From a virus (Duplodnaviria; Heunggongvirae; Uroviricota; Caudoviricetes), in the IMG/VR virus record IMGVR_UViG_2541047896_000024: a DNA stretch of 4,163 nt. One strand, written 5' to 3'. Every line of letters starts with the position of its first letter. The stretch's first letter is position 1. Position numbers and translations under genes: made by a program. This document shows positions 1-4,163 of the stretch, piece after piece. The notes under the pieces were generated by a model, which was not told the origin of the DNA, searched no databases, and saw only the letters and a list, made by a program, of their open reading frames with translations.

Positions 1-7
1 CATCCAA

Positions 8-40
8 CCGCAGCACGTTCTTGCTTAAGACGTGCTGCGG
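8..40. other. Perfect 10-bp GC-rich inverted repeat with 13-nt spacer (ccgcagcacg / cgtgctgcgg)
   Basis: 8..17 ccgcagcacg is the exact reverse complement of 31..40 cgtgctgcgg. It lies 15 nt downstream (minus strand) of the tfa-remnant stop. No U-tract follows on either strand, so it is not a canonical intrinsic terminator. Confidence 0.35.
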
Positions 41-54
41 CATAATCCCAATGA

Positions 55-183
55 TTACTCCCTGACAGGGTTCGTAGGCCACTCAATATCAGGTGCAGTT
101 GATGTATCAACACGGTTCAGCAACACCCGATACTTTTTCCAGGCTTCCAGCAACGGGGTTTCTTCCTCCGTTGCATATACAGC
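55..183 (-). pseudogene. tfa: 3' remnant (last ~42 codons) of a tail fibre assembly gene; the 5' ~150 codons are missing
   Basis: Minus-strand frame between the in-frame TGA (184..186) and TAA (55..57) translates to [42 protein letters not shown]. This matches the C-terminus of lambda Tfa as I recall it (...[32 protein letters not shown]). There is no start codon or N-terminal Tfa sequence; the upstream frame is closed by a stop. Confidence 0.65.
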
Positions 184-193
184 TCACCTTTTT

Positions 194-487
194 TCACCCA
201 CGATTAACCAACAGCCAGACCAGCAGACACGCCACCACCGGCACAGCAAAATCTATCAGGCTTGCCACATCCCAAACACGCGGATCAAAACCGCCCCACC
301 ACGGCATGTTAATCCACTTGCCATGCCCGAACATTTCAATCCAGCGATATTCTGCCTGGGTGTGTTCACGCGCAATGAAGAACGTACAACCGGCTATCGC
401 CCCGTAAACCCAGTTTCCGGCAAAAAGACCAATCATTACCTGCGCAGCCACAGCACAAAGCGCATGAAGAAAAGGTGTTATATCCAT
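194..487 (-). CDS. Small hydrophobic protein (97 aa), predicted membrane protein with 2-3 transmembrane helices
   Basis: ORF 194..487 (-). AGGAGG Shine-Dalgarno directly follows the stop of the upstream 234-aa gene (minus strand TAA-AGGAGGAGTA-ATG). Hydrophobic stretches at about residues 6-39 (FLHALCAVAAQVMIGLFAGNWVYGAIAGCTFFIA) and 72-94 (LIDFAVPVVACLLVWLLV), separated by a Trp-rich polar loop (KWINMPWWGGFDPRVWD). No cleavable signal peptide or lipobox seen. Confidence 0.6.
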   Translation of the reverse strand: MDITPFLHALCAVAAQVMIGLFAGNWVYGAIAGCTFFIAREHTQAEYRWIEMFGHGKWINMPWWGGFDPRVWDVASLIDFAVPVVACLLVWLLVNRG

Positions 488-497
488 TACTCCTCCT

Positions 498-1202
498 TTA
501 TCCGATATCGCTTTGGGAAGTTGATAACAACTTCAATTCTGACTCAAGTTCATCAACTCTTTCAGTCAGTTTCTGGATATGGTGAATCAGTGGAACAACC
601 AGACGTTCGTACATTACACCTTCGGCAACAAGGCCATTGCTGGAAATGGTTTCCGGTGCATCATCTTCGTTGGCTGGTCGCCAGTGAACAAACTGAGGGG
701 CAATTTCTCCTACTTCCTCGGCAATCAATCCATAGAATCCCCAGTCACGCCTGTCATTTTCGCATTGCGACCTGTACCACACAGGGCGCATCCTGAAAAT
801 GAGATCGGCGTGCTCTGAATCTATCGTCTCTACTGAATGTTTATAGCGGATAGACGATGTTGACCGCAGCACAGACGAAATTGCAGGGTCAGGATTAAGA
901 TAAAGATTTGCCGCCGCTGTAGTTGTGCCCAATCCCCATAAATAAAACGCTTCACGGCCAGTCAGCGGGTAAAAATCTCCGCCATAACGACCACTTTCCA
1001 GATCGTTCACTTCCACTTTGTTTTTCAGCTTATTATCCACTTCTGTTTTTGTGTATCTGGTACTGATATCCTGCTTTGCACTGTCCATATCAGTCTGAAG
1101 CGTTGATACTTTTACGTTAATTGAGGAAATATCTTCCTTTGCCTTACTGACATCTCCCTTTAGCGTTTTGATGTCATCAGGAATTACTGTCGATGTAGCC
1201 AT
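498..1202 (-). CDS. Coiled-coil protein with C-terminal peptidase S74-like domain (intramolecular chaperone / chaperone-of-endosialidase type); tail-fibre-like
   Basis: ORF 498..1202 (-) with GAGGAAG Shine-Dalgarno 5 nt upstream of the ATG at 1200..1202. Residues ~9-69 are charged and heptad-like (DIKTLKGDVSKAKEDISSINVKVSTLQTDMDSAKQD...). Residues 116-225 fit the S74 self-cleaving chaperone domain pattern: S116-SIRY-K121 (Ser-Lys dyad spacing as in the SDRRLK motif), ...LIFRMRPVWYR..., ...WGFYGLIAEEVGEIAPQFV..., ...LVVPLIHHIQKLTERVDELESEL. Domain call is by pattern recognition, not a profile search. Confidence 0.7.
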   Translation of the reverse strand: MATSTVIPDDIKTLKGDVSKAKEDISSINVKVSTLQTDMDSAKQDISTRYTKTEVDNKLKNKVEVNDLESGRYGGDFYPLTGREAFYLWGLGTTTAAANLYLNPDPAISSVLRSTSSIRYKHSVETIDSEHADLIFRMRPVWYRSQCENDRRDWGFYGLIAEEVGEIAPQFVHWRPANEDDAPETISSNGLVAEGVMYERLVVPLIHHIQKLTERVDELESELKLLSTSQSDIG

Positions 1203-1211
1203 TTTTCTTCC

Positions 1212-1493
1212 TCACATCCAGCTACGGAGTTGATGCTCAACAGCAACCACGTATTCATCGAATAATGACGATATTTGCGAATCATTAATGATGCGCACAT
1301 TTACAAAATATCCGTCCTCCTTAACACATACCGGCTCGCCATCTTCAGTAAGTTCTCCGGTTTCTTTGTACACATTACCTATCACGTCAATAAGAATATC
1401 ATCCTGCATCGACTCGTCATCATAATAGCCAATGCTCTCCATAAAGGCCGAAAAGTCGGCCCTGTCTGCAAATTTGAGTGTTAAATCTTTCAT
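1212..1493 (-). CDS. Hypothetical small acidic protein (93 aa), translationally coupled to stf
   Basis: ORF 1212..1493 (-). Its ATG (complement of 1491..1493) overlaps the stf stop (complement of 1493..1495) as TAATG. GGGGGAG Shine-Dalgarno about 8 nt upstream inside the stf 3' end. Asp/Glu-rich, no hydrophobic segment. No family recognised from memory. Confidence 0.6.
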   Translation of the reverse strand: MKDLTLKFADRADFSAFMESIGYYDDESMQDDILIDVIGNVYKETGELTEDGEPVCVKEDGYFVNVRIINDSQISSLFDEYVVAVEHQLRSWM

Positions 1494-3895
1494 TAGATTG
1501 ACTCCCCCATCTGAGCATCAGTCAATGCCTTGTGCCAAATACGCAGATTTCGAACGTGTCCAAATAGGTGACGGTTGCCGGATGATGATTGACCACCAAT
1601 ATTAATGAAGCCTCCTGTATATTTGTGTTTTTTATAAGGAGAAACTACCTTAGCACCAATATTACCGTTAACCACAACACACAATTCTCGACTTTCTGTG
1701 AATCTAAAGCCGATAATGCTTTTTCTCTCTGGTCGTTCTATAACGCTTTTATATTCTATTTTAGTGCCTTTACCATTTGTAATGATTGCGCGTGCTCCCA
1801 AAGATGTATACCCCAAATACATATAACTTTCATCTGCAATTTCAGTTGTATCTCCCGTAGTGGAAATATTAAGAATACGTGCGCTACCTTCTTTGTTTGG
1901 CGATTCATCCCAATTGGTATTAACTTCTGCTAATGAACTAATAGCGGGATTGCACCAATTTAGAGAAATGGGGACCGTTACAATATCGCTGGCGCGTGTT
2001 ACAGGGGATGCGCCTGTTATAATAAACGATGAAGCGCATGCCCCACCTTCAACTTGAGGGGTCGCAATATAAATATAATCATCCGCGCCAGTGCCCACTC
2101 CTTTTGCCGGGGCATACTGAACCATTCCACCTATCATATTTTCTGTATCAAGTGCCTTAATTGTCGCCTCAAAAAAGATCCATTTGCTTGCTTCATCTTT
2201 AACAGCCCTTGCAGTAATGCGATTAGCGGCACCACCCGTCTTATCAATAGATAAATCTGTCGTATTTAAGTAAGCGTCACCTAAGAATGTGTAGGTAGAA
2301 CCATCATAGTTTTCAAATCGTAATCGGCATCTTAAATTTGGAGTGCCACTTTGCACCCTGCATGATATGGTTACATACTTTTCTCCGCCTGTTACATCAA
2401 AACCTTTACTGCCGGAAACGGTTACTATGTTAATCGCTGAAATTTGCCCTACCATTTCTGGTTTTAATGTAAATTTTGCGTACTGGAATCCGAAATCATC
2501 TACACCTGATGCACTTAAGATCATATTTGACGACTTGTTCCATTTAGTCGGATTTGTTGAATTGATTAGCAGGTTAGTTCTTTGCCCCTCAATAAGCAGG
2601 CCATCACGTTCAAATCGTGGCTCGTCAATGGCAGCCTCTGTCAGCACACCAGATTTATTAATGTAAGTTGCTTTCGATGCGCGTTTAAACTTTACAATCT
2701 TGTCGCCAGGCATTGTTATTTCATCGTCGCCAATAACAATTTTTTTATATGATGGCGAAAAGCCCGTAATCATATCCAGTGAATCGTTAAACGGTATCCA
2801 CACATCAGGCAGTGGCTGTAAGACATATTTATACGGCTCTGCTGCCTGACTTGCATACTCTCTGGCTGCGTCTTCACTTGCTTTAGCTGCTGTCTGGCTT
2901 GCTGCCGATGCTTGCGCCGAGTTCGCCGCCGCAGTCTCGCTCGCCTTTGCGTTGGTTTCACTGGTTTTTGCTGCTTTTTGACTGTTAGCTGATGCAGTGG
3001 CAGAAGCAGCCGCCGCGCTTGCAGAACTGGCTGCGGCACTCTCGCTTTGGGCCGCTGCATCCTGACTGCTTTTCGCCGCAGTTTCACTGGCTTTGGCATT
3101 CGTTTCGCTGGTCTTCGCTGCCGTCTGGCTGGACTTTGCGTTAGTTTCACTCGTCTTCGCAGCTTTCTGGCTGTTAGCCGCAGCAGTTGCTGATCCAGCT
3201 GCTGAAGTCGCAGAACCGGCTGCCGCGCTCTCGCTTTGGGCTGCTGCAACCTGGCTGTTTTTTGCCGCAGTTTCACTGGCTTTGGCATTCGTTTCGCTGG
3301 TTTTCGCTGCCGTCTGGCTGGACTTTGCGTTGGTTTCGCTCGTCTTTGCGGCTGTCTCGCTATTTTTCGCGTTGGTTTCTGATTTTTTGGCTGCTGTCGC
3401 GGAGTTTGCCGATGCAGTCTTTGAGGTCGCTGCCGCCTGTGCACTATTAGCTGCATTCGTTTCTGAGGTTTTCGCCGCGTTCTTCGATGATGCCGCTGCA
3501 GTTTCGGATTTCTTTGCCGCCGCTGCGCTCTGAGAGGCGGCTTCAGCGTTGCGTGCCGCTTCTTCCACCATTTCCTCAAAACGACGCAATGCCTCCGGCA
3601 TGACATCATCTTCCGTCATGGCACCGAGAAAATCATTCAGCGTCCCCGGCTTAGAATCTTCATACACGGTGATGGTCCCGGCATGTGAAGGCGAAAAACC
3701 TTCAACCAGCAGGATAACGCTGTACTGGCCATACTCAACATCCATACTGTAACGCCCGGCTTCATCCGGATTTTCTGAGGCCAGCGTGTTCACTACCACC
3801 GTGGTGCTGTTACGTTTTGCTTTCAGCTGGATTGAGCAGTTCTGTACCGGTTTTCCTGTGCCGTCTTTCAGTACACCTGAAATCTTTACTGCCAT
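1493..3895 (-). CDS. stf: Side tail fibre protein, lambda Stf family (800 aa) with a divergent C-terminal receptor-binding region
   Basis: ORF 1493..3895 (-). The N-terminal ~115 aa (MAVKISGVLKDGTGKPVQNC...YSMDVEYGQYSVIL...HAGTITVYEDS...) match the lambda Stf N-terminus as I recall it. G-rich Shine-Dalgarno (GGGGGG) 3 nt upstream of the ATG at 3893..3895. Residues ~118-350 are Ala/Ser/Thr-rich heptad-like repeats (KTSETNA/KSSQTAA...). C-terminal 450 aa are non-repetitive and end in ...GFINIGGQSSSGNRHLFGHVRNLRIWHKALTDAQM, which resembles the C-terminal strand of ConA-like/LamG lectin domains. Confidence 0.92.
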   Translation of the reverse strand: MAVKISGVLKDGTGKPVQNCSIQLKAKRNSTTVVVNTLASENPDEAGRYSMDVEYGQYSVILLVEGFSPSHAGTITVYEDSKPGTLNDFLGAMTEDDVMPEALRRFEEMVEEAARNAEAASQSAAAAKKSETAAASSKNAAKTSETNAANSAQAAATSKTASANSATAAKKSETNAKNSETAAKTSETNAKSSQTAAKTSETNAKASETAAKNSQVAAAQSESAAAGSATSAAGSATAAANSQKAAKTSETNAKSSQTAAKTSETNAKASETAAKSSQDAAAQSESAAASSASAAAASATASANSQKAAKTSETNAKASETAAANSAQASAASQTAAKASEDAAREYASQAAEPYKYVLQPLPDVWIPFNDSLDMITGFSPSYKKIVIGDDEITMPGDKIVKFKRASKATYINKSGVLTEAAIDEPRFERDGLLIEGQRTNLLINSTNPTKWNKSSNMILSASGVDDFGFQYAKFTLKPEMVGQISAINIVTVSGSKGFDVTGGEKYVTISCRVQSGTPNLRCRLRFENYDGSTYTFLGDAYLNTTDLSIDKTGGAANRITARAVKDEASKWIFFEATIKALDTENMIGGMVQYAPAKGVGTGADDYIYIATPQVEGGACASSFIITGASPVTRASDIVTVPISLNWCNPAISSLAEVNTNWDESPNKEGSARILNISTTGDTTEIADESYMYLGYTSLGARAIITNGKGTKIEYKSVIERPERKSIIGFRFTESRELCVVVNGNIGAKVVSPYKKHKYTGGFINIGGQSSSGNRHLFGHVRNLRIWHKALTDAQMGESI
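2846..3545. repeat. Degenerate tandem repeats inside stf: about three 189-nt (63-aa) units with 21-nt (7-aa) sub-periodicity
   Basis: Direct comparison at a 189-nt offset: 3078..3140 and 3267..3329 are nearly identical (gcagtttcactggctttggcattcgtttcgctgg...ccgtctggctggactttgcg); 2944..2999 versus 3133..3188 is about 80% identical. A 21-nt periodicity is visible at 3327..3400 (gcgttggtttcgctcgtcttt / gcggctgtctcgctatttttc / gcgttggtttctgattttttg). Boundaries are approximate. Confidence 0.75.
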
Positions 3896-3906
3896 ATTCC
3901 CCCCAC

Positions 3907-3932
3907 AAAAAAGCCCACCTGAACCGGCGGGC
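3907..3932 (-). terminator. Rho-independent terminator downstream of lom
   Basis: On the minus-strand transcript: stem GCCCGCC (3926..3932) / GGUGGGC (3913..3919) with one G-U wobble, 6-nt loop (3920..3925), followed by a U6 run (complement of the A-run 3907..3912). The hairpin pairs better on the minus strand than on the plus strand (A-C mismatch there). Confidence 0.6.
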
Positions 3933-3959
3933 TGTCATAACACTGTGTTACCTGGCTAA

Positions 3960-4163
3960 TCAGAATTTATAACCGACACCCACGATGAAACCGTCAGTGC
4001 GCCAGTCACCACTGCCAGAACCTTCATAAGCAATATCAATGGCCACGGATTCGGTCGGGTTAAACTGCACGCCAGCCCCCCACGCCAGAGACGTGTTGCT
4101 GTGGCGACCGTCATCACTTCCGGTCAGCACATCGTGCGTTTTCCCCTTGTTGTCAGTTACGCG
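3960..4163 (-). CDS. lom: 3' end of lom (Ail/Lom/PagC/OmpX-family outer-membrane beta-barrel protein); 5' part lies beyond the window edge
   Basis: Minus-strand translation of 3963..4163 gives ...SLAWGAGVQFNPTESVAIDIAYEGSGSGDWRTDGFIVGVGYKF*, ending in the aromatic-terminal GVGYKF beta-strand typical of this family; stop TGA is the complement of 3960..3962. Position immediately upstream of stf matches the lambda order J-lom-stf-tfa. Confidence 0.85.
   Translation of the reverse strand, partial: RVTDNKGKTHDVLTGSDDGRHSNTSLAWGAGVQFNPTESVAIDIAYEGSGSGDWRTDGFIVGVGYKF

Follow-up and report, generated by a model that had tools for sequence, protein, structure and literature searches.

A 3' remnant of the tail fibre assembly gene tfa behind orf97 in lambdoid side tail fibre loci of Escherichia coli prophages

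Organisation of the locus

The window, i.e. the whole stretch of DNA analysed here, comprises 4,163 nucleotides of a tailed phage genome (Caudoviricetes, IMG/VR record IMGVR_UViG_2541047896_000024). Every gene in it is oriented on the minus strand. From the 3' end of lom, the gene order leads through the side tail fibre gene stf and three smaller open reading frames to a 3'-terminal remnant of the tail fibre assembly gene tfa:

4163–3960, minus strand: 3' end of lom
3895–1493, minus strand: stf, 800-residue side tail fibre gene, with phage_tail_N at residues 1–131
3546–3895, minus strand: conserved 5' end of stf (phage_tail_N; PF08400, E = 1.2e-68 in Pfam)
1493–1212, minus strand: orf93 (phrog_1361, function unassigned)
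1202–498, minus strand: gene for a 234-residue fibre-like protein with a Peptidase_S74 chaperone domain
194–487, minus strand: orf97, small predicted membrane protein (phrog_1443, E = 2.3e-56, function unassigned)
175–193, minus strand: junction filler AAAAAAGGTGAGCTGTATA T, from the orf97 stop to the first clear tfa base, including an in-frame TGA (184–186)
55–174, minus strand: tfa 3' remnant, 39 codons and a TAA stop, tfaD-type allele of the conserved C-terminal domain of Tfa
1–54, minus strand: DNA past the end of tfa, colinear with the DNA that precedes ybcY in the tfaD/PhiR30_1 context

In a profile search orf97 matched no Pfam family; its counterpart in phage 21 carries the annotation "putative membrane protein, 2 TMDs". 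The remnant does not directly follow the fibre gene, since orf93, the 234-residue gene and orf97 separate the two, and the left neighbour of the joint is always orf97. In the middle of Stf, rich in alanine, serine and threonine, about 249 nt are directly repeated within 2927–3364 (2927–3175 against 3116–3364, about 83% identity), and the register and copy number of the repeat vary among relatives. The long open reading frames in other frames or strands of this region (2770–3609 minus, 3093–3533 plus) are composition artefacts.

Just after the tfa stop, a strong hairpin is located at about 8–41 (RNA dG −27.2 kcal/mol, z = −5.0). tfaD, PhiR30_1 and lambda all retain it, lambda with one compensatory change from a C-G to an A-T pair. 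A canonical intrinsic terminator was rejected, as there is no T-run on either strand; the hairpin may serve as a 3'-end or stability element of an RNA, or may terminate a convergent ybcY/b-region transcript. Three independent IMG/VR viral contigs (L028, L044 and L053) all end at the base equivalent to window position 1, which suggests that assemblies break there owing to repetition of the tfa 3' end and the hairpin within genomes. None of the three is the source of the window, from which they differ in distal stf.

Identity and extent of the tfa remnant

The reading frame of the remnant is open on the minus strand from 183 to 58, giving 42 codons, and ends with the stop codon at 57–55; an in-frame TGA is present upstream (186–184). 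The frame has the same orientation as stf. The stop codon of orf97 (196–194) is 10 nt away from it, with clear tfa sequence starting 10–20 nt beyond that stop. The 42-residue peptide matches the Caudo_TAP family (PF02413) over profile positions 95–130 of 131 with E = 6.6e-17 (62.3 bits against a gathering cut-off of 22.1), as well as several PHROG tail fibre assembly families. In tblastn searches, its residues 4–42 share 97% identity with the C-terminal end of the intact, annotated Tfa of PhiR30_1 and of Salmonella phage SPF_0923, and about 87–90% with lambda Tfa. The profile match, the tblastn results and this geometry bear out the first-pass annotation of the DNA, which had proposed a tfa 3' stump in stf orientation about 10 nt from the orf97 stop.

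Similarity to tfa is present at the nucleotide as well as the protein level:

PhiR30_1 tfa and downstream DNA, window 1–174: 98.9% nucleotide identity
K-12 DLP12 tfaD, window 1–174: 97.7% nucleotide identity
lambda, window 6–175: 87.3% nucleotide identity, diverging over the final codons, near 76
tfaR and tfaQ, window 77–175: 91.9% nucleotide identity, unrelated below 77, where pin-context DNA begins

The same annotation had called for alignment with the genes of lambda, Rac, Qin and e14. The identity stops at 174/175, and tfaE of e14 was ruled out as a relative, having no nucleotide match to the window. The annotation's estimate of about 42 remaining tfa codons is correct for the open frame but not for the tfa sequence: clear identity begins at 174/175, not at 183, so that 39 tfa codons are left, and the open frame begins with three codons (AVY) that do not resemble tfa. 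The filler (175–193) is identical across all orf97-bearing phages and contigs examined. Within it, GAGCTG (bases 180–186) matches the tfa-remnant allele of mEp460 and Ayreon, and these bases may come from tfa codons that have degenerated and shifted frame, with a 1-nt deletion, in which case tfa-derived DNA would reach to about 186.

Of the two domains of Tfa proteins, the N-terminal one, which binds the fibre, is variable, and the C-terminal helical one is conserved (PMC9608196); what is left in the window is essentially the latter. In E. coli AVS0969, where the locus is 96.9% identical, PGAP calls the equivalent of 55–174 "tail fiber assembly protein, incomplete, missing N-terminus". One change in the peptide, S>P at window position 156, is specific to the remnants and was found in none of 97 intact tfa genes.

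The replaced block and relatives with intact tfa

When the window is compared by blastn with PhiR30_1, lambda and Rac, which have intact stf-tfa, the similarity is limited to 1–174/175 and 3546–4163; the block 175–3545 is therefore a replacement relative to the lambda-type arrangement. These alignments place the remnant at the right edge, and the stf 5' end at the left edge, of what would be an ancestral replacement of a lambda-type stf C-terminus and tfa. That related phages carry intact tfa at the same position, a point raised by the first-pass annotation, is seen in PhiR30_1, with the gene order J-lom-stf-tfa-ybcY-tfa fragment-ompT, as against J-lom-stf'-orf93-234aa-orf97-stump-ybcY-tfa fragment-ompT in PhiR49_1: tfa-ybcY in one corresponds to stump-ybcY in the other, followed by the same downstream DNA. 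The proposal that the remnant marks the right boundary of the exchanged module thus holds for the ancestral block 175–3545, but the joint is not specific to the module of the window, and the recent swap lies elsewhere (see below).

Distribution and age of the joint

The joint (...CGTGGGTGAAAAAAGGTGAGCTGTATAT|GCAACGGAGG...) is identical over 42 nt in phage 21, 2G7b, HannyBb and PhiR49_1. Of 5426 complete E. coli genomes, 1737 (32%) contain it when searched with a 101-nt probe across it (140–240, coverage of at least 80%), with up to four copies per genome and about 2700 in total. The exact 42-mer is present in 63 IMG/VR contigs and, in a search of species representatives, in that of Escherichia ruysiae only. 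A seemingly separate class with a break at 142 (megablast matches from query base 3, for instance in JJ1886) was rejected; it is the phage 21/sitABCD type, in which a W>R mismatch at 141 trims the alignment.

Upstream of orf97, the adjoining 2.3 kb fall into 24 clusters among 60 loci, all behind the same joint, and distal stf, orf93 and the 234-residue gene are each variously present, replaced or absent. Genomes that differ on both sides (24 upstream types, at least eight downstream endings) thus have the same joint in common, as is characteristic of a mosaic joint. Its occurrence behind so many cassettes points to a single old event that preceded cassette diversification, and because it connects tfa to unrelated DNA, it was made by illegitimate recombination rather than through tfa 3' homology. 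Our literature search found no publication on this specific orf97-stump joint.

An orf97 of another type, found in IdasGreatGrand (L013, 4992–5279), diverges at the equivalent of window position 209, five codons before the stop, and is not followed by a tfa stump; it is also present in mEp460_4F5, PhiR11_1 and PhiR55_1. This could be the ancestral donor configuration or the result of a later deletion.

Exchanges within the remnant

Behind the identical joint, the 69 remnant sequences end at the C-terminus in at least eight different ways, in addition to two truncations by inserted DNA. The endings include the tfaD-type ...PTNPVRE, the tfaR/Q-type ...QDIEWPALP, and ...PEEPDTM, ...LIQP, ...PEIPEV, ...AAPIG and ...SQP, and the same endings are carried by intact tfa genes. 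The stump-specific S>P change at 156 occurs together with tfaD-type, tfaR-type and LIQP-type endings, while the 5' haplotypes SLR and PLLEAR are each found with both D-type and R-type endings. One 5' haplotype with differing endings implies crossovers inside the remnant, between about 156/141 and about 103/92. HannyBb changes to the tfaR allele at about 77–80, and fibre type U4, that of the window, is linked to the D ending in the window and to the R ending in four further contigs. As read from these haplotypes, the combinations show that the type of cassette upstream and the ending of the remnant have been reassorted.

In experiments, Red-mediated recombination of lambda with Rac and Qin takes place across stf/tfa, about 30 bp being the minimum (De Paepe et al. 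2014, PMC3945230). By extension from that work, Red/RecET-type (Rad52-like) phage recombinases that accept about 30–50 bp are likely to be the agents at the present locus.

On the downstream side, cargo varies. The sitABCD iron/manganese transporter operon adjoins a remnant truncated at the equivalent of window position 118 in phage 21 (L003, 3128–4076) and in E. coli JJ1886 (L195, 1–3052). As phage 21 shares this arrangement with ExPEC strains (JJ1886 and ATCC 25922-type matches), virulence-associated sit cargo occupies this prophage slot. In HannyBb, a gene for a pin-like DNA invertase (L008, 4300–4890) is located directly downstream of the tfaR-type end, as in tfaR-pinR of Rac, although no invertible segment of the fibre is left beside it.

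The recent exchange in the fibre gene of the window

The window was compared with related contigs in bins and then base by base. With contig L028, its closest relative, there are no mismatches over 1–1494 and none over about 3087–4099, while 1495–2753 is about 45% divergent. Contigs L054 and L021, on the other hand, are identical to the window over 1468–2785, are 5–7% divergent from it in orf93, the 234-residue gene and orf97, and have a tfaR-type remnant end. An L028-identical backbone carrying a stretch identical to L054 and L021 identifies the recent event as the replacement of about 1.3 kb of distal Stf, delimited as follows:

1468–1494, minus strand: right crossover interval (last L054/L021 mismatch at 1467, first L028 mismatch at 1495)
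1495–2753, minus strand: exchanged patch, distal (C-terminal) Stf (0–1 mismatches to L054, L021, L039 and L051; phrog_1419 tail protein)
2754–2785, minus strand: left crossover interval (last dense L028 mismatch at 2753, first L054/L021 mismatch at 2786)

The right crossover falls on the overlap of the stf stop and the orf93 start (TAATG). The exchanged part of Stf is presumably the receptor-binding one. The remnant had no part in this window-specific swap. Smaller alternating patches are present at 2786–3086, within the alanine-rich repeat region.

Decay of the remnant

The remnant contains no usable start: there is no ATG in its frame, and nothing but TTG at 153, an internal codon, resembles a start. 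The N-terminal fibre-binding domain is absent, the tfa sequence being reduced to 39 codons by the end of identity at 174/175, with TGA at 186–184. A ten-residue conserved core is altered in 36 of the 69 orf97-linked remnants, as opposed to 4 of the 97 intact genes (Fisher p = 4e-13, which overstates the significance, as the counted sequences share ancestry and are not independent events); distinct core variants number five and two, respectively. The replacements in the remnants are W>R, W>L, L>R, V>M and E>A. The purifying selection on the C-terminal core that is expected of a functional Tfa is not apparent in them. In phage 21 and the JJ1886-type prophage, the remnant extends only down to 118, where it is followed by sitD, and since phage 21 is viable, the remnant is dispensable for a viable phage. 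Most copies retain an open frame of 36–39 codons, which can be attributed to repeated conversion by intact tfa alleles, although it would also be compatible with some constraint. As part of our preferred explanation, 55–174 is probably a non-functional remnant of tfa.

Origin of the remnant

We consider it probable that the remnant stems from one old illegitimate recombination, spread, and later served as a homology tract, and that the fibre swap of the window took place elsewhere. The founding event would have left only the conserved C-terminal helical domain of Tfa, exchanging distal stf and most of tfa for a Tfa-independent side-fibre cassette. That cassette would have brought in a new distal region of Stf, orf93, optionally a fibre protein of the Peptidase_S74 type, and orf97. 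As its identical sequence everywhere shows, the orf97-stump joint was then inherited and spread through the lambdoid prophages of E. coli. The remnant, of about 120 nt, is nearly identical to the intact tfa 3' ends of other prophages, hence its repeated use as a short homology tract. The haplotype combinations show that fibre cassettes on its left and accessory DNA on its right (ybcY/ompT, pin, DinI-like genes and others) were reassorted across it. In some lineages, the remnant is shortened further by cargo such as sitABCD.

Similarity to the intact stf-tfa phages that is confined to 1–174 and 3546–4163, and downstream DNA that is colinear with tfaD and PhiR30_1, would also be expected if the remnant were the right junction of the very exchange that produced the fibre of the window, with the tfa 3' and stf 5' ends as homology arms, as the first-pass annotation had suggested. 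However, the comparison of L028 with L054 and L021 puts the crossovers at 1468–1494 and 2754–2785, a third of complete E. coli genomes share the joint, behind many types of fibre, and it connects tfa to non-homologous DNA, which makes this origin quite unlikely. What survives of the homology-arm proposal is the use of the remnant in later exchanges; the joint itself is illegitimate. It is rather unlikely that two events were involved, in which a cassette replaced stf while orf97 was separately inserted as a moron into tfa and deleted its 5' part, so that the remnant would be the mark of the insertion. The several unrelated arrangements found upstream of orf97, in which orf93 and the 234-residue gene may each be present or absent, would fit such a course, as would the orf97 variant with another 3' end and without a remnant (IdasGreatGrand, mEp460_4F5 and PhiR11_1, break at 209) and the remnants that directly follow a long stf without orf97 in mEp460 and Ayreon; yet at no locus examined is orf97 found beside a longer piece of tfa, or with an intact tfa upstream of it. 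As far as the sequences go, either order of events, a one-step cassette replacement or a separate insertion of orf97, could have led to the arrangement.

A function of the remnant itself, either as a small translated peptide of the Tfa C-domain (for example from the TTG at 153) or as a selected cis element, is very improbable. A GGAGG is located about 11 nt upstream of this TTG, the frame is open in most of the 69 copies, and short-protein PHROG families (phrog_2341 and phrog_3792) end in the same domain. Nevertheless, invariant tryptophan and leucine residues of the core are radically replaced in about half of the copies, the remnant is truncated at 118 in phage 21 and the JJ1886-type prophage, it has no ATG and an in-frame stop upstream, PGAP treats it as a pseudogene, and frequent conversion from intact tfa alleles accounts for the open frame.

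Comparison with related tfa genes and fragments

The Caudo_TAP family (PF02413) comprises tail fibre assembly chaperones such as lambda orf-194, TfaR of Rac, TfaQ of Qin, TfaD of DLP12, U of Mu and G of P2. The last 39 residues of the remnant are 87–97% identical to the C-termini of lambda Tfa and other Caudo_TAP proteins, and correspond to their conserved helical domain. Unlike these proteins, the remnant lacks a start codon as well as the variable N-terminal domain for fibre binding, which in lambda has about 155 residues. It also differs from intact tfa in not immediately following a Tfa-dependent fibre gene and in carrying S>P, with W>R and L>R in the core of sister copies.

Short tfa 3' pieces beside accessory DNA of the ybcY/ompT type are likewise present in DLP12 of K-12, as tfaX and the 5'-truncated tfaD. 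The remnant is a tfaD allele (97.7% identity), and the DNA downstream of it is the same as that of DLP12 tfaD. In contrast to the DLP12 fragments, its partner at the breakpoint is orf97 of a Tfa-independent fibre cassette, and this joint is much commoner, occurring in 32% of complete E. coli genomes. The tfaX-type fragments form a third class of remnants, with the sequence ATEEERSLLEAWNKY... and K>N in the core (L012, K-12 DLP12, 4876–5061; L002, 3282–3416; L005, 5900–6205). Their place in the same contigs is downstream of ybcY; some prophages therefore have two pieces of tfa with the same orientation and about 1 kb between them.

A tfa 3' stump of similar length is also found in mEp460 and Ayreon, there directly after a Tfa-independent long stf, and again with several C-terminal endings. 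It differs in the absence of orf97, in about 10 more diverged tfa codons upstream and in the sequence of the joint. This class, observed in at least nine contigs with several C-terminal endings, one copy being frame-shifted, is located about 50 nt after an stf of about 1200 residues and contains the extra codons VQTVVELEI (L014, mEp460, 4938–5108; L006, Ayreon, 4938–5117). A link between the two classes through the 234-residue Peptidase_S74 gene, as the C-terminus of the long Stf of mEp460 and Ayreon, was discarded, as tblastn found nothing. The orf97, mEp460 and tfaX types are three independent classes in which the same 40 or so codons are kept, a shared retention that is partly an ascertainment effect, as the classes were found with a probe inside the conserved end.

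In having a short conserved tract beside variable cassettes, with crossovers inside it, the remnant resembles the mosaic boundaries, or "HR traces", of lambdoid phages (De Paepe et al. 2014, PMC3945230), with which it shares the stf/tfa genes, the host and the prophage pool. Unlike that system, in which exchange was observed experimentally, the remnant is a pseudogene fragment known here from its sequences.

Implications

For annotation, 55–174 should be treated as a tfa pseudogene fragment and not as a gene. Nor should it be read as the breakpoint of a receptor-binding swap, as the real crossover is located at the stf/orf93 boundary. It is unlikely that the remnant and the hairpin downstream of it were kept by second-order selection as a "linker" for swapping fibre cassettes and downstream cargo. 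If they were, they would be a concrete example of the conserved boundary sequences postulated by modular theories of phage evolution, and the cargo would include virulence and fitness genes such as sitABCD, ompT, pin and DinI-like genes.

The joint fits established models, and tfa fragments at mosaic boundaries are already a known kind of feature; the findings on the remnant support these models and do not change them. They provide a well-populated natural example of how one illegitimate joint becomes a widely shared homology tract, across which fibre cassettes and accessory cargo, including sitABCD of ExPEC strains, are reassorted among E. coli prophages.
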